A DNA stretch of 64,000 bases from positions 2,624,001-2,688,000 of the forward strand of contig CBDFJF010000002.1 in the NCBI GenBank assembly GCA_965248265.1, given 5' to 3'. This DNA comes from Candidatus Latescibacterota bacterium (GTDB lineage: Bacteria > Latescibacterota > UBA2968 > UBA8231). The notes beneath the pieces are model-generated. The model was not told the DNA's origin and made no database searches. It worked only from the letters and a program-made list of their open reading frames with translations. This document shows positions 27,311 to 41,197 of the stretch, one piece after another (within the stretch, counting starts at the first letter, position 1; each line of letters opens with the position of its first letter). Both the position numbers and the translations under genes were made by a program.

Positions 27311-28243
27311 ATGACTGATGTTGCCAGAATTCGCGGAGTGCTGTCTCCGGTCGTCACCCCCTTCGATGGCGATCTGCGACCTGACGCTGAGCGGCTTACG
27401 GCACACTGCCGTTGGTTGCTCGACAGCGACGTCGGACTCGCCGTGTTCGGCACGAACTCCGAAGCAAACTCGCTGTCCGTGACGGAAAAGCGCGGTCTGC
27501 TGGACCACCTTGTCGAGGCCGGGCTGCCGCCGTCACGGATGATGCCGGGTACGGGTTGCTGCTCGATCAGCGATTCTGTCGAGCTCACCACCCACGCGGT
27601 CGGACTCGGCTGCGCCGGTGTGTTGATGCTACCGCCTTTCTATTACAAGGGAGTCTCGGACGAGGGGCTCTACCGCAACTATGCCGAGATCATCGAGCGC
27701 GTCGGAGATGGGCGGCTGCGGATCTACCTGTATCACATCCCACCAGTCGCCCAGGTAGGAATCAGCCTCGGGCTTATTGAACGACTACTCTCGGCTTATC
27801 CTGAAACCATCGCGGGAGTGAAGGACAGCTCGGGGGACTGGGACAACACACAGGCCATGCTGGAGCATTTTCAATCCGAGGACTTCGACATCTTTCCCGG
27901 CAGCGAGACCTTTCTACTGGCGGCGCTACGCGCTGGTGGTGCAGGGTGTATCAGCGCCACCGCCAACGTGAACCCCGGGCTGATCGCCAAGCTTGCTTCA
28001 ACCTGGGAATCCGCAGACGCCGACGATCAGCAGGCCGCCCTCAATGCAGTGCGTGCGGTTTTTCAGACCTATGTCATGATCCCGGCGCTGAAAGCGGCGA
28101 TCGCCTACTTCGGGGATGATCCCGCGTGGACGGCGGTTCGCCCGCCGCTCGTAGAGCTGGAACCGAATGGGCGTACGGCACTGACCCGGGCATTGGAGGC
28201 AGTGAACTTCAGCATGCCCGGTCTGCATCGATCGGGTGTGTGA
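27311..28243 (+). CDS. dihydrodipicolinate synthase / N-acetylneuraminate lyase family protein
   Basis: VVTPFD, FGTNSEA, LPPFYY, YLYHIP, catalytic GVKDSSGD. Confidence 0.9.
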   Translation: MTDVARIRGVLSPVVTPFDGDLRPDAERLTAHCRWLLDSDVGLAVFGTNSEANSLSVTEKRGLLDHLVEAGLPPSRMMPGTGCCSISDSVELTTHAVGLGCAGVLMLPPFYYKGVSDEGLYRNYAEIIERVGDGRLRIYLYHIPPVAQVGISLGLIERLLSAYPETIAGVKDSSGDWDNTQAMLEHFQSEDFDIFPGSETFLLAALRAGGAGCISATANVNPGLIAKLASTWESADADDQQAALNAVRAVFQTYVMIPALKAAIAYFGDDPAWTAVRPPLVELEPNGRTALTRALEAVNFSMPGLHRSGV

Positions 28244-28295
28244 CGGAATTCACACATTGTTAGCTGGCCGATACACTCATAACTATAACGGGCCC

Positions 28296-28787
28296 TTTGG
28301 GCTATCCATTTAACCGGACTAAACACTATCCGTTGTGGTAGGGCTATATGCCTGATAATCCAAAGGGATTCCCACTCCCCATGGCGAGCCCGCCAACCTC
28401 ACTGGCTTACAAACAGCCAGCAGGAGGGCGCTAATCCACCCTGACAATAAGTGCTTGAGCATCGACAATTCTGACTCCCTTCGTAAGCAACCTGAGAGGT
28501 TGACAATGCGTGCGCGATCTCGTCTGCGCGAAGCCACGTGACGCCCGTCCAATTCAGCACGCCGCTCGAGCGCCTTAAAATATGCCATCTAATGCCATCT
28601 CTCCGAACCGCCCAATGGGAGATGGGCGCATCAAGACAACAACCAATAGCTCCGCCGCCAAGCCCCCGCAGACGGGTGTGCGAATACTTCCTGCTCAATT
28701 AGATGCTCCAAGTAGATGGGGCGCGTCGGTGCAGTCATACAGTACTACAAGATGCGGATTCCAGTCCGGTTAAATGGATAGCCCAAA
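28296..28787. mobile_element. non-autonomous MITE-like element (492 bp)
   Basis: Perfect 25-bp terminal inverted repeats (TTTGGGCTATCCATTTAACCGGACT at 28296-28320; reverse complement at 28763-28787); GGGCC directly repeated one base outside each end (28290-28294, 28789-28793); no convincing internal ORF. Confidence 0.7.
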
Positions 28788-29094
28788 CGGGCCTTATCGT
28801 TCTTCGTATAATGGGTTCAGGTCCATTCAATGGATCTGGTCCGGCGCGACGGCGGCCAGCCGCGTACTCTCCGTGCTTGTTTTTTTGCTGTCAGTGCTGC
28901 GATCCTGGATCAGCGAAGCTGCTGGGGTTGGCTTTCCGTTCTGGGCCATGTTCTCTCGGATAGACCGCCATCTCGCCAGCATATGCACTTACCGCTTGAT
29001 GGGACATCGGTTCCCTGATCTGGCTACGAGGATGTGCCAGCTGGCGTCACCCCGATCGTGGGCAGCTTCGGTCTCCTGGCCAAGGAGCTCGCCA

Positions 29095-29817
29095 ATGTGG
29101 ACTCTCGGTATCGACGTAGCGAAACGAAGTCATCGCGCCACCCTGTTGGATGAGGACGGCCAAACCGTCTTCCGAAACCTCGCTGTGCAGCACTCACACG
29201 AAGGGGTTGAGCAGTTGTGTCGACGCCTCGCCGAGACCGGACAACCCGCCGCCGACATCCGCGTCGGCATGGAGGCCACCGGACGCTGCTGGATGGTCCT
29301 CTACGAAGCGTTGGTCCAGCTGGGTACGCGGTCGAGGTCCGAATCCGTTTCGCCATGGAGCGCGTCAATCTGCTGATCGAGCAGATCGCGCAGCTCTACG
29401 AACGCCTACGGGATCTTTTGACCGAGCAGCAGACCCTCCTGCAGTCCATTCCAGGTCTGGAGCCCGTCTGGGCGCCGACCATCCTCGCCGAGATCCTGCC
29501 CGTATTTCATCCTGAGGAGCAGCATGGCCCCCCAGCTCGTCGCCGCCGCTGGCCTCGACGTGAAGCAGTTTGACAGTGGCGCCCTAACCGGCCGCGGCAG
29601 GATGTCCAAGCGCGGCAGCCGCTATCTGCCGCCGTTATCCAACTGTGAGATCGCCGTCTTCAAGAGCCATGACCCCCTATTCACCCAGGTCTATCAGCGA
29701 CAGATCGACCGCGGCAAGCATCACCTCGTCGCCCTAACACACGTCGCCAACAAGATGCTCCGCGTCGTATTCAGCGTCCTCAAGAACAACCGTCCCTACA
29801 CACCTATCCCCAACTGA
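29095..29817 (+). pseudogene. IS110-family recombinase, internally deleted and frameshifted
   Basis: AAGGAG RBS; DEDD N-terminus LGIDVAKRSH...VGMEATG; then LQSIPGL..VWAPTILAEI and AAGLDV...DSG...MSKRGSRYL...VANKMLR in three different frames; TTGACA near the right end at 29849-29854. Confidence 0.88.
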
Positions 29818-30248
29818 ACGGAGACTACATATTTGCCCACGATTGGTGTTGACATATTACCGCTTGGTCTATCCGTTGGACCCATCTGGTGGTGGTGGCA
29901 GTAGCGGTGGGGTTTCGGTGCAGGCACCAAGAAGATGATACCCAAGGACCCGAAGACCATCGGCAGCACGCGGAAGAAATCGCCACGGGTGAAGTCGTCG
30001 TGGAGGGGTTTGAGGAGGAGTAGGCTTCTTCTGGCCCTCCGGGAATGGCCCCTTGATATTCGGTCAGAAATCCTGCTGGGCTGCGGGCGTGTGGCGGTCC
30101 AGTCAGCTTCGAGCGAGTCGGCAGCGAGTCGATTGGCGGAGTTCGCTGCAAGCGATCCTCGGCCTTCGGTGGCTCGTTAGACCATGCGTCTGCCCTTACA
30201 GATCGGGACCAGCTGCGTCGCTTGCAGGAGGCGACGGTCCTGAATGGG

Positions 30249-32666
30249 TCAAACGCTATGGGATAATCTCAATATGTCTGCTTCAATGTCTTGAGGCCAC
30301 TCCAGGCCGCGACCAAAGGACAGGTAGCGGGCAGCGTTCACCATTCCCCGAACCCATGCCCTCGGTTTCCTGTTTGACGTCAGCAGCAGCCGTAGGTCAC
30401 CTAGTGCACTACAGCAAAATAACAGCGGATCGTCAGAGCACACCGCAACATCTACGTTGCTATCCATCAGAGAGATTACGGGGTGGCCAGCGAAGGGGGT
30501 TCCCAGGATTGCGTGATTGGAGGATGGACAGCATTCGACTGCCACGCCCAAATTCGATAAGTATTCCTTCATGTAGATTTGCAATGGCTCAACGACGGCC
30601 CGTATATCTGTGGGGTACGCTGTGACTCCGACGCGACCCCATCCAGTCCTCGACGTGATCATGGCTTTCGCCGAACTCTCGACATCGTCCCATTTTGACC
30701 TCGCTCTCACTTCCTGGTTTTGTAGGGCCTTTTGAAAGGCGGGACAAAATTTCCTCTCGTACGCTCTGGCAAGAGTCAACGGGTCTCGCCCCATTTCTCT
30801 TAGGTTGCCTTCGCTTTCGTCGATCACGTCGGCCGCAACGTTTTTCAATCGCTCTGTGACTGCCGCAGCAAACCCAGGACCAGGGACGGTTAACTTCGGC
30901 TCACAGCTACTCTGTAGGAGCTGGTACAGCCAGCACAGATCGTCCAGGATGATCTCCTTTGGTACAATCCAAGCGTGCTGTGGGGGGTGCCAAGACAGTG
31001 CGACTCCGTGCCCGATTCTGATTTTGTCCAGGTTGCGCTGCTTACATCGAGCGAGCAGCTCAACAAACTCCCAAATCCGCCTCATACCATCGATCGGAGT
31101 GCAAACATCTTCGCCTGCATGAAAGGTCATGCCAATGTCCAGCCCCTCATACCGCTGCATTGGCTGACTAAAGACCCAGCTCGGCAGCAGTCGCTCGTCT
31201 CCGGCTACGTCTACACCAAGTATTAGGCCGTGCGCTCTGGGAATCGCACTGAATGCTCGCACGACAGTCTCAGCTTCTTTATTGTAGTCTGAGATCAAGG
31301 CTTCGTATCGTAGGAAGCCTTCAGCGCCATCCGAATCCCTCTTGATGTGATGTACGACCAAACCTATCTCGATTCCACTCTCTCTCCGAAGACGATCTGC
31401 AGCGCGTAAGATGGGCGCTATTTTCTCTCGAACCCAGGAATCAGTACCGTCTGCCCATGGAGGGCTGATACGACCCTCTAACAGAGTCAATCGACCACTC
31501 TTACAGGTGGATGCCAGGGCGTCATACACATTCCTATCACGCTCGTCATCCTCGAATTGTGTGGTGCCAGCTCCTGGCTCCAGTAAATCTAGTCGGCGGA
31601 AACGCTCCACGAAACCTTTTAGGCCGCGGTCGGGCTCCAGGTAGCAGAAGTGTTGGTGTACCAGATTGCGTATTCGCGCGTACCGAAGTGCACACTGCCT
31701 CAGAAGGCTCTGGGGTGGGAGGCCCTTTACTTTCCCAAGCAAGTCATAGAGCATCTGAGCCTCAGATTTCGACGTCGCTGTTCTGATTGTATCGGCCGCC
31801 ACGAGATCTCCCTGATTGTACTCTATCTGCAAGGCCAATCGAAGCAACGGCGGGCCTTCTTGCGGATTGAATTGCGTATCATGGGTATCTCTGCTATAGT
31901 CCGGTGTCTCCCAAACCGGGGATGGGAGGACAGACAACACTAGGTCGCTAACGGGTTGACGAAACATGGGCATGTGCACGCCCCGTAGGCGGTCCACGTA
32001 CGTGTCGAAATCCTCCTCACGAGCCCGCTCTCTATAGGATCTGAACAGCCAGTGGAAGGCCCACCCCCAAAGCCACATCAGCAAGCACTTCTCGGTTAGG
32101 CCATTCTCTGCCAATTCCGCCGCAGTAAGCTCGGAGACCTTCCACGGCAATGAGCGAGTGAGCCTGACCCACGGTAAGCCCGCAGCAAGCGCTGCGGTCA
32201 CGTGAACGTGAAGATCGACACAGGTATCCGCCATATCACTACTAGACCACGGTGCACCGTCCTCGATGAGTTCAAGGGCCACATCCGGAGCAACGTCGTG
32301 CTCAACACAGACGATCACGACCAGCGCAGACGGATCTAGAAGTCGGCCAAGGTACGGAAGGTATTCCTCTACTCCAAGGTCACGATGACCAATATGCATG
32401 GGGCGCCAAACGGCTCGGGGTCGTCTAATGTCGATAGAAGCACTACCGAGGTCAGCGAGATGCTGGAGTGCGTCCTTCCCTGGATGCCACACTGGCTCCG
32501 TGAAGTACGCGTCCGGAACCCTCTGGCCAAGAGAGCCTTCGATGGGCCGTCTCACTCTGCCTGGCGCCGGCAATCGCCCACCTTCGATGGACTCTTCGGC
32601 CGAAGCGAAAGGCCAGATATAGATCGCGAGAGACGGATCAACCTGCCCCATGCTCGGAGTCATCAC
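30249..32666 (-). CDS. rdrB: adenosine deaminase-family protein, RADAR RdrB-like (805 aa)
   Basis: Complete amidohydrolase metal motifs DLHVH, GVDVAGDE, TFHAGED, RIGHG, VECCPSSN, CSDDP; far longer than housekeeping ADA; ATGA overlap with the upstream ATPase. Confidence 0.78.
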   Translation of the reverse strand: MMTPSMGQVDPSLAIYIWPFASAEESIEGGRLPAPGRVRRPIEGSLGQRVPDAYFTEPVWHPGKDALQHLADLGSASIDIRRPRAVWRPMHIGHRDLGVEEYLPYLGRLLDPSALVVIVCVEHDVAPDVALELIEDGAPWSSSDMADTCVDLHVHVTAALAAGLPWVRLTRSLPWKVSELTAAELAENGLTEKCLLMWLWGWAFHWLFRSYRERAREEDFDTYVDRLRGVHMPMFRQPVSDLVLSVLPSPVWETPDYSRDTHDTQFNPQEGPPLLRLALQIEYNQGDLVAADTIRTATSKSEAQMLYDLLGKVKGLPPQSLLRQCALRYARIRNLVHQHFCYLEPDRGLKGFVERFRRLDLLEPGAGTTQFEDDERDRNVYDALASTCKSGRLTLLEGRISPPWADGTDSWVREKIAPILRAADRLRRESGIEIGLVVHHIKRDSDGAEGFLRYEALISDYNKEAETVVRAFSAIPRAHGLILGVDVAGDERLLPSWVFSQPMQRYEGLDIGMTFHAGEDVCTPIDGMRRIWEFVELLARCKQRNLDKIRIGHGVALSWHPPQHAWIVPKEIILDDLCWLYQLLQSSCEPKLTVPGPGFAAAVTERLKNVAADVIDESEGNLREMGRDPLTLARAYERKFCPAFQKALQNQEVRARSKWDDVESSAKAMITSRTGWGRVGVTAYPTDIRAVVEPLQIYMKEYLSNLGVAVECCPSSNHAILGTPFAGHPVISLMDSNVDVAVCSDDPLLFCCSALGDLRLLLTSNRKPRAWVRGMVNAARYLSFGRGLEWPQDIEADILRLSHSV

Positions 32667-34999
32667 GGGTTTGTTCTACTCTCGCTGCTCGGTTTCTTAG
32701 GCATTTGCTGGCCGTGGACGAGTTCTGACAACTCCCTTTCCTTCACCGCAATGCTCTCAGGAACCAGGCCCACCTGTTCAAGGGCGTTTCGCAGCGCCAG
32801 CCACTGGGGGCTAGGATCTATCGTCTGCGAGTCTACCAGAATTTTTTGTAGGGCGAGGTGCTCCCCCTGGGCGATAAATCGTTGTACCAACTCCGGCCGC
32901 AATTCCTGAAGAGCTCCGGTTGCCCTCTTGCTTGCGGTAGAGTCCTGCCTCAATGTCACGAGTATGTCTCTGGCGGCGTGCGCCTTTTCCAGCCTCTCAT
33001 CAAAGTCGGTCTCTGGTTGAACCTCCGAGAAGAGCGCTCGTGTCAATCGAAGGATTCCTTCGACTGGCACTTCTGCCTTCTGGAAATGGGACGCTATCAT
33101 AGGCATGTTCGCCAGAAATCGCTCAATGTTGATCGCGCTCATTCGTGCTGCACCGTCGCGGTCTTGAAACTTCCGCGTGAAGTTGCGGATGCGCGGCACT
33201 GCCCACTCTTGCATCTCATCCCAAGCAGAATCCTCCCTGAAGTTCCGATACGTCGCGAGCCTCAGCGACAGCCGTTGTGCCAACAGAAGCGAGAAGACGA
33301 TCCTCAGATAGCAGTGCATCATCGCCGAAGCCACGTGACGCCAATGCAGTCGATCTGGCTGCGACAAAAAGCATTTATCAAATACGTGATTAACCACAGA
33401 GCTCACTAAGTCGTGCTGCCAGAACTCGTCGAACTCGACGGATGGCAGTGAGATCTCATCGATGCGGAAATTTACACCGTCCACACCGCCTGGCAGAGCA
33501 AGTTTCCCAGTTGGGTATGGAAGATCGGCAATTGTCTGAGAGACATCGTGAAGAAGAAGAACTGCCTGAGACGTCGACTGCTTCCATCTACTGTTGGCGA
33601 GCTGACGCATGCGAAGTAGCTCCCACGGGCCCATTTTCGTTATAGCGAAAGCTTTTCCAGGGGCTGCTGCCCCCCAGTCAAAGCTGATCTGCTCCTCCTC
33701 CCGGTCGATCATAGAAGCGATCTCCGAACTCGACGCGGCGTCAACGACGCACTGGTAATCAACGATGTCTTGAGCCAAGGAGAGGAACGAATGCACGTAA
33801 GACTTGGAACGTGCGTCCAGAGAAGAGCGCGAGCTGGAAGCCACAGTTTCTGATGCGAATGACTGCACCTGGCGCTGGAATATAAGACTCAAAGACCTCA
33901 AGTGCCGCGGATTCGCTGTGAACATGGATACATACGGCGAATGGGCTCGCATGCCTCTGAGCTCCCCCGTCAATGCCCAGCTCCAGTCGAAGTACCCCAA
34001 CAGAGTGGATGGCGTCAGGTACCCGGGCTGCCTTCGAATGGGAAACCTGTCGAGGATGACGCTCAGGCTGTCGGAACCCCTGTCGCTTCGAAAGGACAGG
34101 ATCTCATTACGCTCCCAGGGTTGCACGAAAATCCGCCCTTCGTAGGGTAGTAGCTTTACCATCTGCTCCACAGCCTCGTTCTGAGGAAGCACAGAATGCT
34201 CTTCGCTATCCTTGTTGTTGTCTATGCTAGTATTTTGCTCAGGCGCCGCGACCCCGGATGAGGCTGCATTGTCAGAAAGAATTGTGTTAAGGACCATTCT
34301 TTCGTCAGCGCTGACCAAAAACACGGTACGGGGATGACAGGAGAGCATCCACAAATCTCGAATGACATTCGCCGAGTCGTTAGGCCTTAGGTCGACATCA
34401 TCTACTGGAACCACGAGCAACGGGTTGCCACGCCGCTGTCCGAGTTCCAGGGACAAATCTAGCAGGCCGGAAGCCAATAGCTCCCAGCATTTTTGTGCGT
34501 CATAGCCTGCTGAATAGGTCTGTACCACTGTCGAAAGCTCTCGATTCTGGGTATACGGGCTCCCCTCTCGCTGGGGGGCGAGCTCGAGCAGACCGGCCAT
34601 GCGGCGGAGTCTCTCCCAGGTTGCTTCAAGTGTCGTTAATTCTGGTGTGCTTGGTTGTGTCTCTGTCCGTTCGGCCTCAAGCAGGAGGTTTCGGAGGGGC
34701 GACTCTATCGCTGCTAGTAGGATCGAGAGGGCAGAATCGCCTGGCCAGAAGACTTCTGGCTCAAGCACTTCGATCACGAGATCCTCTCCTCGCTCCTCGA
34801 GGGCCCGACGGACTCCGCGAAGGATGGTGGTCTTTCCTGACCCGCGATTACCTAGGAGAGAGATCAGATTAGGCATTGGCGCTTGAACCGATTTGCGCGA
34901 CGAGAGAACAGGCTTCTGGTAAGCCCTGTCTCGATTTTGATCAATCTGCGACACGATCGAACTCACGGCGTCCTGTTGCCGACCGCTCAGGCTGTTCAT
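32663..34999 (-). CDS. rdrA: P-loop (KAP/AAA+-like) ATPase, RADAR RdrA-like (778 aa)
   Basis: Walker A ISLLGNRGSGKTT, Walker B LVVPVDDVDL, NPRHLR sensor-like motif, helical C-terminal half; GAGGA RBS; translationally coupled to the deaminase. Confidence 0.75.
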   Translation of the reverse strand: MNSLSGRQQDAVSSIVSQIDQNRDRAYQKPVLSSRKSVQAPMPNLISLLGNRGSGKTTILRGVRRALEERGEDLVIEVLEPEVFWPGDSALSILLAAIESPLRNLLLEAERTETQPSTPELTTLEATWERLRRMAGLLELAPQREGSPYTQNRELSTVVQTYSAGYDAQKCWELLASGLLDLSLELGQRRGNPLLVVPVDDVDLRPNDSANVIRDLWMLSCHPRTVFLVSADERMVLNTILSDNAASSGVAAPEQNTSIDNNKDSEEHSVLPQNEAVEQMVKLLPYEGRIFVQPWERNEILSFRSDRGSDSLSVILDRFPIRRQPGYLTPSTLLGYFDWSWALTGELRGMRAHSPYVSMFTANPRHLRSLSLIFQRQVQSFASETVASSSRSSLDARSKSYVHSFLSLAQDIVDYQCVVDAASSSEIASMIDREEEQISFDWGAAAPGKAFAITKMGPWELLRMRQLANSRWKQSTSQAVLLLHDVSQTIADLPYPTGKLALPGGVDGVNFRIDEISLPSVEFDEFWQHDLVSSVVNHVFDKCFLSQPDRLHWRHVASAMMHCYLRIVFSLLLAQRLSLRLATYRNFREDSAWDEMQEWAVPRIRNFTRKFQDRDGAARMSAINIERFLANMPMIASHFQKAEVPVEGILRLTRALFSEVQPETDFDERLEKAHAARDILVTLRQDSTASKRATGALQELRPELVQRFIAQGEHLALQKILVDSQTIDPSPQWLALRNALEQVGLVPESIAVKERELSELVHGQQMPKKPSSESRTNP

Positions 35000-35100
35000 G
35001 TTCCTCTCCTCTTCATGTTCCTCTCCATTGGCTAGTGGAAACCCTTCACAAGAATCAGGTATCGTCTGGGGTGGGTCAAGAAATTCCTCCCCTCGCCATA

Positions 35101-35190
35101 CCCGGTAAGCCCCACTATACCCATCCCGCCCTTCACAAAAGCCTCAAGTTTTCATTCGACACCAAGCCTCAAGCGATCTTGACTATTTAT
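35101..35190 (+). repeat. 90-bp direct repeat, copy 1
   Basis: Matches 36344-36433 with 7 mismatches in 90 (manual count); core TCGACACCAAGCC..AAGCGATCTT also found at 49633 and partly at 55036. Confidence 0.9.
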
Positions 35191-35402
35191 CTCTTTAGGC
35201 GGAAAAGTGCAAGGTTTCTTTTCTGCAATTCGGAGGATTTCTTCAACTTGCAATAATCTCATTTCGGTCTTCAGTAGAGACCTTCATACTGTTCCGGCCA
35301 GAAGCCGAGCCAGAGGGACAGAGTGTAACGTGGGTGATCTTCCCGAAGGAGTCACGAATAAATAGCGGTCATCTCTGGCCCAGTTCCTCGTTGTTCGTCT
35401 TC
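35191..35402 (-). ncRNA. candidate bridge/seek RNA region in the 3' non-coding end of the second IS110 element
   Basis: Stem 35373-35381/35307-35315 closes a large internal loop and an inner TTCG-capped hairpin (35334-35355); one loop arm (CTATTTAT) equals the junction sequence at 35183-35190. Confidence 0.45.
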
Positions 35403-36215
35403 TCAGGCGGCCGCCCGTTCGTATGATGCGGCACAGGTGAAGTGGCGTTCGGCGTTAAATGCTTGTCCGGAGCGGTACCAACCGTGAAGTTTTCGCAGGA
35501 AGTGCCTCATGACGGCGGTCATGGCTTTCTGTCCGGGCATGGAAAGGCGTTTGCTTCGGTAGTAGTCGCCGTACAGACCCGTTCTACGCACCAGGGGAAA
35601 GATGACCTGGCTGGGAATCTTACGCAGGAGAGCCCTTCCCTTCTTGGAGATTCTGTATTGCTCTCGATACTGACCGGATTGACGCATCTGAATATTGAGA
35701 CCGGCGTAGCGCATGAGCATACGCCAGCTGGTGAAATCGCTGAGTGGTCCGGTTTCACCGATGAGGCGAGCCAAATTCTTGGCTGATGACGCCCGAGGTC
35801 GGAGCGGGTAGGCTCGGATCTTTCTGACGCAGACGCCGCAAGAGCGAAATCAAGCGCTTTTCCAAGATCGCCTTGCGTTGCTCGTAGAGCAGGAACTCCT
35901 CCCACAGCTGGCTGAGGTCGACCTCGAGGAGATCGATGTATTCGGGTGTGAGTTGATGACGGGCGGTGGAGGTTGCGTCCTCCCAGAGCCGGTCCAGCGA
36001 GCACTGCCGGATACGCGGCGCCCGCCGCCGCATGGCCCGCTCGAAGCGGGTACGGCCCGCACGGACGATGCGATAGGGATTGCATCGATACTTATCGATC
36101 AAGGCGCGACCCGAGGTGCTGTAGAGAAAGCTCTTGGTGAAGGAGAAGTCGCAAAACAGCTCCATCAGCACGCGATGCAGTCGGCCACGCACGTTTGGAT
36201 ACCGGTCGGCCAAAG
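35403..36215 (-). pseudogene. IS110-family recombinase, 5'-truncated and frameshifted
   Basis: C-terminal domain ARLIGETGPLSDF...RYAGLNIQMRQSG...ISKKGRALLRK...KAMTAVMRHFLR; coiled-coil region in the adjacent frame (35755-36351 ORF); DEDD N-terminus absent. Confidence 0.82.
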
Positions 36216-36343
36216 GCTGCTGAGATCTGCGGATAATCATGTTTTTCCGAAGGCCTTCCCAGCAATCCGAGTTCGAATACACGGCCTGATCGCAGCACCG
36301 CTTGATCCCACAGGATCGATGCGCCTGAATCGACCCTCGCCTG

Positions 36344-36433
36344 CCCGGCAAGCCCCAATATACGCATCCCGCCCCTCATAAAAGCCTCAAGTTTTCATTC
36401 GACACCAAGCCGCAAGCGATCTTGACTATCTAT
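36344..36433 (+). repeat. 90-bp direct repeat, copy 2
   Basis: See copy 1; the two copies bracket the second IS110 remnant. Confidence 0.9.
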
Positions 36434-37278
36434 ATGGCCGCTGATCAGGGTCACGCGCGCGGCCGCAAAGCGACCTCTGGTGGCTGGCATGAGGTCCCAC
36501 TCAATTCGTTAGATTGCGCGTAGCACGTGGGGGTAGCGCGTGCACGAGAGCCGATAATCAAAGACTGTCATGCGTACCCGCGCAAAGCCCTTCATCGTCC
36601 TCGTCGAACGCTTCTACCCCCGATCCGTTCGTCTTCGCCTCGTCCTGACGTTCGTCGCCGGGCTGATGGCGCTGGGGCTGACTGACCGGCGGAAGTCCTC
36701 GTTGCATGGGGTGAGGGACTCAAGGGGCTCCTTACCTTCATGACACAGATCGCATTGACTCTCGTCACTGCGCACGCACTGGCTCACACCGACACGATTC
36801 GTGCTGCACTTGCCTGCACTCAAGGCAGCGTGTCTAGTGCCCCAGCTTCTCGATCTCCCGCTGAATGAGGGTGGAGCCGGTAGCCAACGCCGAGTACGCC
36901 GCCGCTGCGCCTCAGCACGAATAAGCCGGACAGGCGGTTGCCCGGCCTCGGCGACGGAACGACCTTCTCTCCGACGCCCATCGACCGAGCAACCGCCGTC
37001 CACAGTGCACTCACGAGTAATCGTGAGAGACCCGCGCGGGTTCGGTCGTCTCAGACCACGGAGACGAGGATGCCGGATCGGAACCCACAGCCAACCGGTC
37101 GCTTCTGCGCTGGTGTTGGCCTCCGTCCGCCGAACAAGGCTGTGAGGGACTTAGCCACAAGCCATGGCGCCACGACCGGGCGTCTGCGAAGGGCACGATC
37201 CACCATCAACAGCCCCCATGTTTTTCGAAGTGAGCCGCTTCTCCTCGACGTCGCACGCCACACGGGTCCTGTCATCAG

Positions 37279-38307
37279 TTGGAAGGACATTCTTCTACGG
37301 TTTTGAAAACGTCCAGTTTTGAGAGCAGCGCTTTGGCTACGGAGGAGGAGGAGGAGGTACGCCGAATCCAGCAAGGTGACGAACGGGCATGGGCCGATTT
37401 TCTGGCGCGTCACTCGGATCTGATCTTCACCAAGGCGAGCCAGTACTGTCGCCTTTCGAAGGTCCTTGCCGGTGGCCTCGACTGGAGGGATGAGCGCGAT
37501 GAGCTTTACCTGTTCATGGCCCAGGCCCTGCGGCGGAGTCTGAATTCATTCCGCATGACCTGCCAACCGCGGACGTGGGTTTTCGCCGTACTTGGTAACC
37601 GCAAGCAAGTCGTGAAAGCCTATCTCCTGCACAAGGCCCCGGCCCGGGCGGACGTGCGCCTGCCCAAGATCATGGAGTCGAGGACGGCCCTGGAGAAGCA
37701 GATTTTCAGGCGGCTTATCTGGGGTATTGATCCTGCCCATATCGCCCTGGAACTGCAAACGGAAGAGGACCAGTGTGCCGAGGTGGAAGCGCTGCTCCGG
37801 CAGCACAGTCCGCGCGTCTACGAGCGCATGCTAGGCAACCGGGTGGCGTTGGAGCCGACGCTGAGCGTTGATGACGTTGACGAGCGCGGTGGAGGACTAC
37901 TCAAGTTTACCGCCGACGCGCCAAATCCGGAGGAACTGTTTGAGTCAAAGGCTGTGAAGCAGATCGTGCAGCAGTCGCTGGCCGATGCCCTCGACAAGCT
38001 CACCACTCCGGAACGCCGGGTGCTGGTCCTGCTCTACAGCCAGGGTATGAGCGCGGCTGACATCGTTGCCCTGGCCGCAAGTGATCCCACGCTTCTCGAA
38101 GGTGAGATCGGCAACGTCAATCAGTGCTACTACATCAAGGATCGCGCGCTCGAAAAGATCGCTGGTGTCATGACATGCGAGCTGGTCAGGGCCTTTGACG
38201 AGGAGTTGGTAACATCCCAGTCCAGACGGGTTTACCAGTGTATCGAGGCCCTTCTGAAAGAGCGCGGATTTCCCGCATCAAGGTTGGACAGGAGTTCGGG
38301 GAGATGA
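37279..38307 (+). CDS. atypical sigma-70 family RNA polymerase sigma factor
   Basis: Region 2-like GDERAWADFLARHSDLIF...RTWVFAV; VRLP plus a central HTH; LSVDD...PNPEE; region 4 ALDKLTTPERRVLVLLYSQGMSAADI. Start codon uncertain. Confidence 0.78.
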   Translation: MEGHSSTVLKTSSFESSALATEEEEEVRRIQQGDERAWADFLARHSDLIFTKASQYCRLSKVLAGGLDWRDERDELYLFMAQALRRSLNSFRMTCQPRTWVFAVLGNRKQVVKAYLLHKAPARADVRLPKIMESRTALEKQIFRRLIWGIDPAHIALELQTEEDQCAEVEALLRQHSPRVYERMLGNRVALEPTLSVDDVDERGGGLLKFTADAPNPEELFESKAVKQIVQQSLADALDKLTTPERRVLVLLYSQGMSAADIVALAASDPTLLEGEIGNVNQCYYIKDRALEKIAGVMTCELVRAFDEELVTSQSRRVYQCIEALLKERGFPASRLDRSSGR

Positions 38308-39502: not shown

Positions 39503-41197
39503 ATGAACACAAGAGCCAACGCAGAGCCCGAACTGCTGACAAGGTTGCGCCGATCATTGGAGCAGACGGGTCTGGTTGCTGACCTGGAGTCCCTCGACTC
39601 GCCAGACCAGGTACCAACGGTAACGAACAACCTCGCGCAGACCACCCTTCGATATCTCCTCTCCGTAGACGCCGATGCAGGCGAGCGCATGTCGGACGAG
39701 TTGAGCGGTCTTCTCGGAGCTGACCAGTTCTCACTGCTGATGGAAGATACAGGGTACACGTTTCTGCACGTCGTTCAGTATCTCTACGAGTACTCGAAAC
39801 ATCACGCAAAAATCAGTGAGAGCCAGTATTTCTGTGCTGGCATGGGCCGCGGGGGTGGTGGTATTGAAGTAGCACCGAACGAGGAAGTCTTGAGCTTGAT
39901 TCTTCTGATGATGACGGCCCTACCGGCCGAGGGCGATTCGCACGGTATCAAGAGCTTGTTCGAAACGTTCGGTCCGATCATCCTCGGCAACGTATTTCCC
40001 GTTGGGAAATTCGAATTCGATCACCCATCGGATCGTGCAATGCGCATCACCCTGCGATATTCCGATCCGGAGGCGATGAAGTCGAGTCTACATCCGCTTG
40101 GTCTCAAAGCTGATATCGGGACATTCTTCCTGAATTCGGCTCTGCACATTGAGGGAGTCATTCAGCTGGGTCTGGACATTATCATCAAGGATGCGCCGCG
40201 TTCGGTCACTGTTTCCGGACTGATCGGGGATGGCGATGACGCCGACCGGCAATCGTTACAGGACGCGTGCTCATGCACGTGGGACATTAGCTGGGTGCCT
40301 GAAGTGGGATTAAACAAACTGGGAGAGGCAGATAAAATCCTAGCTCAAGGGCGAACCATATATGAGGCTTTTCTCCGTCGCGACCTCCAATACCATCAAC
40401 AACGCATCGCGAGTCTCGAGCTGCAGGTTCGGTCCCTGGAGCAGCGAGAACAGTACAGAGAGCTCGAGCAGGAATTGCAGACGGCACATACTTTGCAAAT
40501 GGGGTTGATGCCCAAAGAAATTCCCAGCGCACGTGGGATGGATCTGGCCGGCAGATGTCTACCCGCCAATCACGTCGGCGGAGATTTTTTCAAGTTCTTT
40601 CGTCGAACCGAGGGCAGGTTAACTGGTGTCCTGGCAGACGTCAGTGGGCATGCGATGGAGGCGGCTATCCCTTTGTTGGTCTTCAGCGGTATCCTCGAGA
40701 GCCAGATGGAAATGGGTGGCTCCGTCGGCGACATCATCGACCGCCTCAATAAGCTGCTCTGCAGGACACTGACCGGTCGTTCCTTCGTGTGTCTGTTGAT
40801 GGGTGAACTCGATCGCAAAAGGGGGCGACTGACCATATCCAACTGCGGTTGTCCGTATCCCTATCATTTCCGGGCAGCAACGCAGCAGATCTCAGAGATT
40901 GAACTCGATGGATATCCCCTGGGTATCAGTCCAACCGCTACCTTCGGGGTGTTGGAGACTCACGTCGAGCCGGGCGACTGGGTTACATTCTGTTCAGATG
41001 GAATAATCGAAGCTCGCAACAAGGACGATGAGCCCTTCGGTTTCGAGCGGACGGCGGATGTAATAAGCCAGGGATGTATGGCACAGAGTTCCGCATCGGC
41101 ATTGATTGATCATGTTCTACAACAGGTCCTGGATTTCACGGAAGGCGTTCCTCTGGCAGACGATCAGTCGATAGTCGTGTTGCGAGCTCAACAGTAG
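39503..41197 (+). CDS. PP2C-family (SpoIIE/RsbU-type) phosphatase with unknown N-terminal input domain
   Basis: Coiled coil, then ELQTAHTLQMGLMP, PANHVGGDFF, LADVSGH, SDGIIEA, PFGFER, ADDQSIVVLR. Confidence 0.9.
   Translation: MNTRANAEPELLTRLRRSLEQTGLVADLESLDSPDQVPTVTNNLAQTTLRYLLSVDADAGERMSDELSGLLGADQFSLLMEDTGYTFLHVVQYLYEYSKHHAKISESQYFCAGMGRGGGGIEVAPNEEVLSLILLMMTALPAEGDSHGIKSLFETFGPIILGNVFPVGKFEFDHPSDRAMRITLRYSDPEAMKSSLHPLGLKADIGTFFLNSALHIEGVIQLGLDIIIKDAPRSVTVSGLIGDGDDADRQSLQDACSCTWDISWVPEVGLNKLGEADKILAQGRTIYEAFLRRDLQYHQQRIASLELQVRSLEQREQYRELEQELQTAHTLQMGLMPKEIPSARGMDLAGRCLPANHVGGDFFKFFRRTEGRLTGVLADVSGHAMEAAIPLLVFSGILESQMEMGGSVGDIIDRLNKLLCRTLTGRSFVCLLMGELDRKRGRLTISNCGCPYPYHFRAATQQISEIELDGYPLGISPTATFGVLETHVEPGDWVTFCSDGIIEARNKDDEPFGFERTADVISQGCMAQSSASALIDHVLQQVLDFTEGVPLADDQSIVVLRAQQ

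Follow-up and report, generated by a model that had tools for sequence, protein, structure and literature searches.

A very divergent, probable RADAR-type ATPase–deaminase cassette in a Candidatus Latescibacterota genome

In a Candidatus Latescibacterota genome (7.32 Mb, 2 contigs, 59.6% GC), a gene for a large ATPase is directly followed by one for a large deaminase. Do the two encode a distant form of RADAR, the RdrA plus RdrB system said to be the subject of Gao et al. 2020? We analyzed the pair within a 64,000-nucleotide stretch of its contig, hereafter the window, and conclude, with a probability of about 0.7, that it is a very divergent, deep-branching and so far unannotated RADAR-type anti-phage cassette composed of an RdrA-type ATPase and an RdrB-type deaminase. 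This reading is supported by fold and profile evidence, not by the cut-offs of curated models.

The ORF coordinates, lengths (778 and 805 aa), overlap and catalytic motifs given in the original prediction were confirmed (Table 1). The genes are arranged in tandem on the minus strand, the ATPase first and the deaminase second, which is the order found in RADAR. On record, the deaminase starts one codon later than in our table, at an ATG at 32663, and has 804 aa. In the ATPase frame the junction reads ...CCG TGA TGA..., with the TGA at 32665-32663 as the true stop and GTGATGA as the shared stretch; the ATPase stop overlaps the deaminase GTG start by 4 nt (GTGA), or its ATG start by 1 nt. The letters ATGA, previously taken as the coupling signal, are present here, but the TGA within them is a second in-frame stop rather than the real one. 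The mini-ORF ahead of the ATPase originated from a 17-nt tandem duplication covering the ribosome-binding site and start codon. At some loci, RADAR is accompanied by accessory genes of the SLATT or Csx27 type. No third gene was found in this cassette: the sole downstream ORF (29825-30151, 108 aa) was rejected as an accessory gene, being a low-complexity, Ser/Thr/Pro-rich reading that is probably non-coding. Four sequencing runs match the sequence, all from one sample of one study that is probably its source, and no RNA run is listed among them.

Table 1 Features of the ATPase–deaminase locus and its surroundings (window coordinates).
Feature	Position	Strand	Basis
rdrA-like gene, AAA+/KAP-type ATPase, 778 aa	32663..34999	-	ORF, ATG start
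rdrB-like gene, large adenosine-deaminase-fold protein, 805 aa from GTG	30249..32666	-	ORF
Left IS110-family remnant	28804..29876	+	blastn 83-87% to contig C2 copies; Pfam DEDD_Tnp_IS110, Transposase_20; tblastn
Right IS110-family remnant, different type	35406..36192	-	blastn 87% to C2:2689520-2690535
90-nt direct repeat, 92% identical, around right IS remnant	35101..35190 + 36344-36433	.	Repeat search
Mini-ORF, six codons (MKRRGT*); its TGA overlaps the ATPase ATG (ATGA)	34996..35016	-	Repeat D4, translation

The deaminase carries the motifs DLHVH (H153, H155), HAGED (H516, E519), RIGHG (H553), ECCPSSN and SDDP (D745, D746), and retains 14/14 invariant columns in an alignment of its nearest relatives with 61 members (query included), 58 of them matched by PADLOC RdrB models. 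The zinc/catalytic feature of RdrB, a histidine tetrad plus a glutamate, is present as H153/H155/H516/H553 and E519. For E. coli RdrB, PMC9994260 reports H152, H154, H498, H530 and E501, and the PDB alignment pairs H516/E519/H553 of our protein with RdrB H498/E501/H530. The stretch of about 150 residues before the HxH motif, which the original prediction listed as a deviation, is therefore canonical. E. coli RdrB (8fnv/8fnw/8hr7/8hrc) was also the top PDB sequence match of the deaminase (E 4e-8). When an AF2 model (pLDDT 80.8, pTM 0.88) was searched with Foldseek, the top eight matches were all RdrB chains (E 3e-16 to 1e-12, about 890 columns). The predicted structure resembles these chains over its full length (TMq 0.58-0.64, TMt 0.59-0.67), whereas plain adenosine deaminases reached a TMq of only 0.26-0.31. 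Identity to RdrB in the fold alignment was 15-17%. Judged by this full-length match of the model, the N-terminal extension and the two large insertions that surround the core in RdrB appear to be present as well.

Homology of the ATPase to RdrA lies in its N-terminal half (about residues 1-400). Walker A spans G50-T57 and Walker B comprises D200/D201/D203; G55/K56/T57, D200/D201 and D232 align with RdrA G81/K82/T83, D221/D222 and D253, and all Walker A, Walker B and sensor 1 residues of the RdrA AAA+ core are present. R365 is invariant across the 7 closest ATPases, and its position alone suggests that it may be the equivalent of sensor 2 R377 in RdrA. Walker A and Walker B are separated by 144 residues, compared with 139 in RdrA, and in the model this gap is filled by helices 90-111, 118-140 and 151-185, a predicted counterpart of the helical "crown" insertion that belongs to the RdrA-specific fold. 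No match was obtained when the ATPase alone was compared with the PDB by sequence. In hhalign the query matched a profile of 35 partner ATPases from which it had been left out, with a probability of 99.6% (E 3e-24, residues 12-376), and the partner-ATPase family profile matches E. coli RdrA at 2e-37 and Streptococcus suis RdrA at 2.6e-17. When the profile was restricted to the 7 closest ATPases, query included, the top three matches were RdrA (1.3e-10 to 6.6e-10, the latter being S. suis RdrA 8fnu) and the next stood at 0.002. In Foldseek, 20/20 matches of the ATPase model with E <= 1e-3 were RdrA chains, followed by HslU at 3e-3. The structure comparison put forward as a check supports the RADAR reading.

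The pairing of the two genes is itself conserved. Of 79 genome loci holding a relative of the deaminase, 53 have an ORF matching the ATPase (phmmer E < 0.01) directly upstream on the same strand. The clade that the tree places beside the query shows this arrangement at 3/3 of its metagenome loci (E 2e-18 to 5e-11). The closest relatives are unannotated RdrA/RdrB-like pairs in Lamprocystis purpurea (L036), a Magnetococcales bacterium (L082) and an Armatimonadia MAG (L065), along with three metagenome contigs (L089-L091). At these loci a deaminase of 781-982 aa directly follows an ATPase of 775-823 aa; L090 departs from this with a longer open frame (1110 aa) and a deaminase of 747 aa. The ATPases match the query at E 2e-18 to 2e-7. 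The query ATPase shares 18-22% identity with them over the full alignment, the C-terminal halves not being alignable; for the deaminase, identity is at most 25%, and the genomic contexts are unrelated. The core claim of a distant RADAR-like pair is therefore backed by the fold search, the comparison of profiles, the catalytic residues and the conservation of the pairing. Proximity of homologues to defence genes, which had also been anticipated, was not seen at five closest-relative loci, where the 10 flanking ORFs examined were housekeeping except for one relaxase. Searched against a word index of 5.8 billion proteins, each of the two proteins found nothing but itself. In the tree the deaminase forms an orphan branch of 2.02 substitutions per site, with identities of at most 25%, and this long branch makes its placement inside the family unsure.

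HMM scores, proposed earlier as a check, fell far below the curated cut-offs. With the NCBIfam models, the ATPase scored 23.1 bits for RdrA (NF041743, cut-off 600) and the deaminase 32.2 bits for RdrB (NF041744, cut-off 800). Five relative pairs were also below these cut-offs, with 105-189 bits for RdrB and anything from no match to 126 bits for RdrA; the coverage of these equivalogs is limited to the enterobacterial-type core of the family. Neither PADLOC model gave a confident, model-wide match: RdrA aligned at E 5e-4 to residues 195-252 (about 58), tied with PifA, and RdrB at E 1.7e-6 to residues 494-582. The PADLOC CARF_ADA model was stronger on the deaminase (E 2e-9) than PADLOC RdrB. Membership in this Cad1/CARF-ADA group was rejected, as no CARF domain was matched in Pfam and the PADLOC match covers the deaminase part only (profile positions 333-497). 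Cad1, a type III CRISPR CARF-fused deaminase (9c67 and other PDB entries), is described in PMC11645235 as antiviral and as making ITP from ATP. The likeness to Cad1 is confined to the deaminase core (TMq 0.26-0.28, TMt 0.35-0.52), and where Cad1 has a cyclic-oligoadenylate sensor, our deaminase has an ATPase partner. These results indicate that RADAR-type cassettes extend well past the reach of the curated models tested (NCBIfam, PADLOC), and model-based surveys therefore probably undercount the family. It took structure prediction, together with profiles made from neighbouring genes, to recover the present pair.

Among known systems, RADAR of E. coli P0304799.3 and Citrobacter rodentium (8fnt, 8fnv, 8fnw, 8hr7-8hrc; PMC9994260) has the same ATPase-then-deaminase order with coupled genes. 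The deaminase, with 805 aa, is close in length to the E. coli-type RdrB chains in the PDB (798-799 aa). Walker A, Walker B, sensor 1 and the long stretch inserted between the Walker motifs are common to the ATPase and E. coli-type RdrA, but the two differ in the C-terminal half, where there is no detectable similarity. At 778 aa the ATPase is indeed shorter than RdrA of E. coli (947 aa) and S. suis (907 aa), as originally predicted, although this is no peculiarity of the locus, ATPases of 760-823 aa recurring among its relatives. The query ATPase alone had no direct pairwise sequence match to S. suis RdrA. According to PMC9994260, the S. suis SS993 system (RdrA 8fnu) is protective by experiment while its RdrA is less than 20% identical to that of E. 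coli outside the ATPase core, showing that the RADAR family tolerates divergence of this order. The same source, whose Table S1 catalogues 270 systems, places RADAR in 75 genera of 7 phyla, which is at odds with the earlier description of the system as characterised mainly from Proteobacteria.

The composition of the pair is foreign to its surroundings, as had been noted by eye. GC3 is 0.587 and 0.620 for the pair versus 0.685-0.797 in 14 of the 15 other window genes measured, the exception being a SpoIIE gene (0.614), and GC is 54-56% across 30000-36000 versus about 60% outside. Both ORFs are intact amid mobile-element debris, lying between decayed, converging IS110 remnants as described. In the left remnant, transposase residues 1-77, 237-298 and 299-396 survive in frames 1, 3 and 1, respectively, a pattern that indicates an internal deletion of about 160 codons and a frameshift. 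In the right one, residues 162-298 and 298-424 survive, spread over two frames, so that it is 5'-truncated (the first 161 codons are missing) and frameshifted; its counterpart at C2:2689520-2690535 holds an intact 424-aa transposase. Intact copies of both types occur elsewhere on the same contig. The suggestion that the pair could have come in as a composite unit is unsupported, because a composite transposon would need two copies of the same IS and the flanking remnants are different IS110-family elements, their transposases being 24% identical over 321 residues. No shared terminal repeats bracketing the pair were found. Parts of the 90-nt repeat recur elsewhere in the genome.

No orthologue of the pair was found among the 40 relatives searched; together with the low GC3 and the dead IS elements on either side, this speaks for an accessory status of the pair. 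The DHDPS gene has a single close orthologue (77% identity), on a 7.8-kb contig of genome G004 that has nothing else in common with the window, and a search of 25 relatives for the 342-aa gene on the right was negative; synteny did not delimit the island. Genes close to the pair in the window are metabolic, and no further recognisable defence gene lies among them. We found no tRNA genes in 20000-45000 and no Rfam families in 28000-37500.

A pair with the RADAR fold might nonetheless work differently, as a functionally distinct sister family with another adenine-containing substrate, trigger or output, for instance an inosine nucleotide that signals to an effector encoded elsewhere. This would fit the extreme divergence of the deaminase, whose best non-self match in an exhaustive search of 1.84 billion cluster representatives was 71 bits, the unique C-terminal half of the ATPase, and the unusually cysteine-rich surroundings of the active site (ECCPSSN and VCSDDPLLFCC versus E.CPTSN and NTDDP..F in relatives). 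We nevertheless consider it unlikely, as the metal and catalytic residues are all canonical, the modelled deaminase fold equals RdrB over its whole length, the cassette lacks a third gene, and PMC9994260 describes the RdrA C-terminus as unconserved even among proven RADAR systems.

Somewhat less probable again is that a horizontally acquired cassette persists here as an inert relic, no longer expressed or active and merely not yet broken. Dead IS elements and repeats surround the pair, and the right IS remnant starts about 100-180 bp upstream of the ATPase start. A promoter and terminator scan, which may not suit this organism, gave nothing exceeding shuffled background, and the minus strand showed no sigma-70-like promoter. 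However, the two genes hold 1,583 open codons and keep every invariant family residue while both neighbouring transposase genes have decayed, a good ribosome-binding site (GGAGAGGA) precedes the ATPase ATG, and the stop and start codons of the two genes overlap. That the deaminase is a housekeeping purine-salvage enzyme beside an unrelated ATPase is highly improbable. Although Pfam A_deaminase and TIGR01430 match it weakly, the genome has a separate match of the ordinary type (C2:127318-127563, in an open frame of 500 aa), and 32 of 40 relatives have the ordinary type only. The 805-aa length with RdrB-type extensions, the ATPase partner conserved across the family and the foreign composition argue against this reading as well.

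For the RADAR-type cassette that we favor, the defence role, oligomeric state, binding between ATPase and deaminase, substrate, trigger and ATP-to-ITP chemistry are proposed by analogy. In the systems described in PMC9994260, RdrA forms a heptamer and RdrB a dodecamer that join in a supramolecular complex, with the alpha-helical RdrA C-terminal domain as a second ring layer, and infection leads to conversion of ATP/dATP to ITP/dITP and to phage protection. In the RdrA-type ATPase, the N-terminal half would bring the catalytic residues and, between the two Walker motifs, a large helical insertion, and the unique helical C-terminal half would be the likely infection sensor. The translationally coupled RdrB-type deaminase downstream would supply the full zinc/catalytic site together with large N-terminal and internal extensions. 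On the model of RADAR in E. coli and S. suis, a ring of the ATPase may dock onto a deaminase shell, and upon infection the complex would turn on mass conversion of ATP/dATP to ITP/dITP and halt phage replication. A predicted complex of deaminase residues 150-750 with ATPase residues 1-399 (score 0.02, mark 0.32) was weighed neither way.

The pair is an orphan addition to the known RADAR kind of system, not a new kind, and reveals no new defence principle. It offers very distant sequences for asking which RdrA and RdrB residues are indispensable, and with its unrelated C-terminal half the RdrA-type ATPase is material for studying trigger recognition. This half (residues 380-778) is predicted to be helical, mostly at a pLDDT below 60; it had no sequence relatives in the word-index search of 5.8 billion proteins, and the Atlas gave no usable match. 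With some 400 residues modelled at low confidence and unmatched, half of the ATPase is left unexplained. We tentatively raise the possibility, doubtful as it is, that the cassette represents an orphan RADAR lineage whose ATPase sensor domain is of a type unseen elsewhere in public data. In that case the pair would respond to an infection cue other than those of the studied systems, possibly with a different assembly, and would provide a natural test case for how RdrA C-terminal domains set trigger specificity. Separately, an Atlas look-up of the whole ATPase returned KAP-NTPase-labelled clusters of about 780-800 aa, which we record as leads only.

Sequence homology, predicted fold, catalytic residues and the coupling of the two genes all backed the original prediction of a distant RADAR-like pair, an RdrA-type AAA+ ATPase with an RdrB-type adenosine deaminase. 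The pair stands on the outer fringe of this anti-phage family, as a highly divergent orphan that curated models miss. It widens the known range of RADAR and gives a distant comparison point; it brings no new mechanism, and its significance is modest.

On the deaminase, Pfam A_deaminase scored 33.6 bits and NCBIfam RdrB 32 bits (cut-off 800), while PADLOC returned RdrB at E 1.7e-6 and CARF_ADA, the CARF-fused deaminase of type III CRISPR, at E 2e-9. The top PDB sequence match was E. coli RdrB (8fnv/8fnw/8hr7/8hrc; E 4e-8), the alignment pairing H516, E519 and H553 with H498, E501 and H530. In PMC9994260, cryo-EM places the RdrB zinc tetrad at H152, H154, H498 and H530 and the catalytic glutamate at E501. 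The HxH motif of the query lies at H153 and H155, so the lead of about 150 residues before it, previously listed as a deviation, is the family norm. Searched exhaustively with phmmer (E ≤ 1e-3), 1.84 billion cluster representatives yielded 544 matches, most of 740-950 aa, the best non-self match reaching only 71 bits (6e-15). All 14 invariant columns of a 61-sequence alignment were kept by the query; PADLOC RdrB models matched 58 of the 61 members, with a best E of only 1e-38. The AlphaFold2 model built on this alignment (pLDDT 80.8, pTM 0.88) returned RdrB chains as the top eight Foldseek matches over about 890 columns (E 3e-16 to 1e-12, TM 0.58-0.67), whereas ordinary adenosine deaminases and Cad1 spanned the catalytic barrel only (TMq 0.26-0.31). 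The predicted fold thus indicates a protein that is RdrB-like along its whole length, extensions included.

For the ATPase, Pfam AAA_16 scored 31 bits, which is under its threshold, NCBIfam RdrA 23 bits (cut-off 600), and PADLOC RdrA and PifA E 5e-4 each; PDB sequences gave zero matches. Profiles of gene neighbours provided the leverage to identify it. The profile of partner ATPases (n = 35, query left out) matched residues 12-376 with a probability of 99.6% (E 3e-24). With the query included, the 36-sequence profile reached E. coli RdrA with E 2e-37 and its S. suis counterpart with 2.6e-17. When the profile was restricted to the seven closest ATPases, the three RdrA sequences still took the top ranks, at 1.3e-10 to 6.6e-10, ahead of a match at 0.002. 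The AlphaFold2 model was good over residues 1-400 and poor thereafter; RdrA chains accounted for 20 of 20 Foldseek matches at E ≤ 1e-3, followed by HslU at 3e-3. Of the checks proposed originally, the AlphaFold comparison agreed for both proteins, for the ATPase with a model good over residues 1-400; curated models gave weak PADLOC matches and NCBIfam scores far below the cut-offs.

G55/K56/T57 correspond to Walker A, D200/D201 to Walker B and D232 to sensor 1 of RdrA, as named in PMC9994260; R365 is likely sensor 2, judged from position only. The Walker A-Walker B gap is 144 residues in the query versus 139 in RdrA, and in the model long helices fill it. This predicted insertion is consistent with the 'crown' by which RdrA touches RdrB in the solved structure of their complex (PMC9994260). 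Residues 380-778 had no match among partner ATPases, by word-index search or in Atlas, leaving the C-terminal half without relatives; among proven systems, too, RdrA conservation is confined to the ATPase domain, according to PMC9994260.

Pairing of the two genes recurred among relatives. A scan of genomes yielded 80 loci coding for deaminase relatives, with a callable deaminase ORF in 79; in 53 of these the ORF immediately upstream on the same strand (760-1275 aa) matched the query ATPase (phmmer E < 0.01). The other 26 included six lacking an upstream ORF of at least 150 aa in the retrieved DNA and one Magnetococcales locus (L082) whose matching ATPase ORF was scored as a miss because the two ORFs overlap by 82 nt at the start of the deaminase. 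In a FastTree tree of 111 large deaminases, the query sat as an orphan on a long branch (2.02 substitutions per site, ≤25% identity), perhaps loosely joining a clade with no known members beyond unnamed cluster representatives. Metagenome loci of this neighbouring clade carried an upstream ATPase-type ORF matching the query in 3 of 3 cases (E 2e-18 to 5e-11), two of 802-804 aa and the third a 1110-aa open frame. One locus each from Lamprocystis, Magnetococcales and Armatimonadia likewise encodes an ATPase of about 775-825 aa, so the short ATPase is a recurring form. Several of the peculiarities originally listed are thus family norms; the observation itself was confirmed and the interpretation as a whole partly supported. 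All five relative pairs examined with NCBIfam fell far under the equivalog cut-offs; the RdrA/RdrB models span just a small central part of a broad family.

In the ATPase frame the junction is CCG TGA TGA, with a second in-frame TGA directly after the stop. The ATPase stop overlaps the deaminase start by 4 bases with the GTG start and by 1 base with ATG. The proposed ATGA coupling stands insofar as the string exists at the junction, but the operative ATPase stop is the first TGA, upstream of the ATGA's own. A ribosome-binding site, GGAGAGGA, precedes the ATPase ATG. Upstream of this gene, ribosome-binding site and start codon together are duplicated in tandem over 17 nt (34996-35025, -). The mini-ORF that results has six codons, MKRRGT*, and ends in a TGA overlapping the ATPase ATG (ATGA); it may serve as a leader ORF or simply be a slippage scar.

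Features of the pair and its flanking elements (window positions)
Feature	Position	Strand	Remarks
Decayed IS110-family element, left	28804-29876	+	Transposase residues 1-77, 237-298 and 299-396 kept; three pieces, two frames
rdrB-like deaminase ORF	30249-32666 from GTG (805 aa), or from ATG at 32663 (804 aa)	-	804-aa form is the recorded protein
rdrA-like ATPase ORF, 778 aa	32663-34999 (ATG at 34999)	-	Together the two ORFs span 30249-34999
Remnant of a different IS110-family element, right	35406-36192	-	Lacks first 161 codons; one frameshift

Homology with the studied systems (PMC9994260) suggests how the pair would work; its assembly, mutual binding, substrate, trigger, expression and phage protection are all inferred. 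The ATPase would form a ring whose helical crown docks above the deaminase active site, and the deaminase a shell built via its insertions. Infection would elicit mass deamination of ATP/dATP to ITP/dITP, halting phage replication. A plausible infection sensor is the variable C-terminal domain of the ATPase. That the RADAR chassis was kept for a different substrate or output seems unlikely, an unexpressed relic less probable again, and housekeeping purine salvage very improbable.

GC3 of the pair was 0.587 and 0.620, versus 0.685-0.797 in 14 of the 15 further genes measured in the window (exception: a SpoIIE phosphatase gene, 0.614), in agreement with the lower bias suspected by eye; GC dips to 54-56% over 30000-36000 from about 60% outside. 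The converging dead insertion elements on both sides were likewise verified, and both have intact copies elsewhere on C2, the source contig. Their transposases are only 24% identical, however, and a composite transposon, the mode of arrival suggested originally, is not supported because the remnants are two different elements, not copies of one. The surroundings are not a defence island: the outer neighbours are metabolic (enolase-superfamily enzymes, epimerase, DHDPS, glutamine synthetase III, GDPD, aldehyde and alcohol dehydrogenases), together with the SpoIIE phosphatase. No deaminase orthologue was found among 40 relatives searched, the sole matches there being to ordinary adenosine deaminases, in their C-terminal motif. 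The 10 flanking ORFs scanned at the five closest-relative loci were unrelated housekeeping genes and one TrwC-type relaxase, with no defence-island signal for this branch; since these flanks are unrelated, the cassette travels as an independent unit of two genes.

The SpoIIE-type gene (39503-41197, +) is also low in GC (0.545) relative to its neighbours and, with its low GC3, may be a second foreign gene. Neither of the adjoining 342-aa and 318-aa genes could be clearly assigned to a Pfam family, and the former was found in none of the 25 relatives searched. The interval from the DHDPS gene to the left IS110 remnant contains a 31-nt inverted repeat (28290-28320/28763-28793; 94% complementary) whose arms are separated by 442 nt. 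The right remnant is flanked by a 90-nt direct repeat (35101-35190 and 36344-36433; 92% identical), whose last ~70 nt (36365-36434) recur at several other C2 sites at 90-92% identity; it may represent non-coding ends of the element or a preferred target repeat. Right of the island, a ~300-bp stretch (36521-36816) matches two distant C2 sites (~538 kb and ~1,217 kb) at 92-94% identity and adds one more short repeat to this debris field. Past the window's right end, two intact, 100% identical IS110 transposase genes (C2:2703973-2705160 and C2:2724312-2725499) lie exactly 20,339 bp apart, with more related copies and fragments at ~2.76-2.79 Mb; the twins could reflect recent transposition or the segmental duplication of ~20 kb, in a zone rich in IS elements that adjoins the window.
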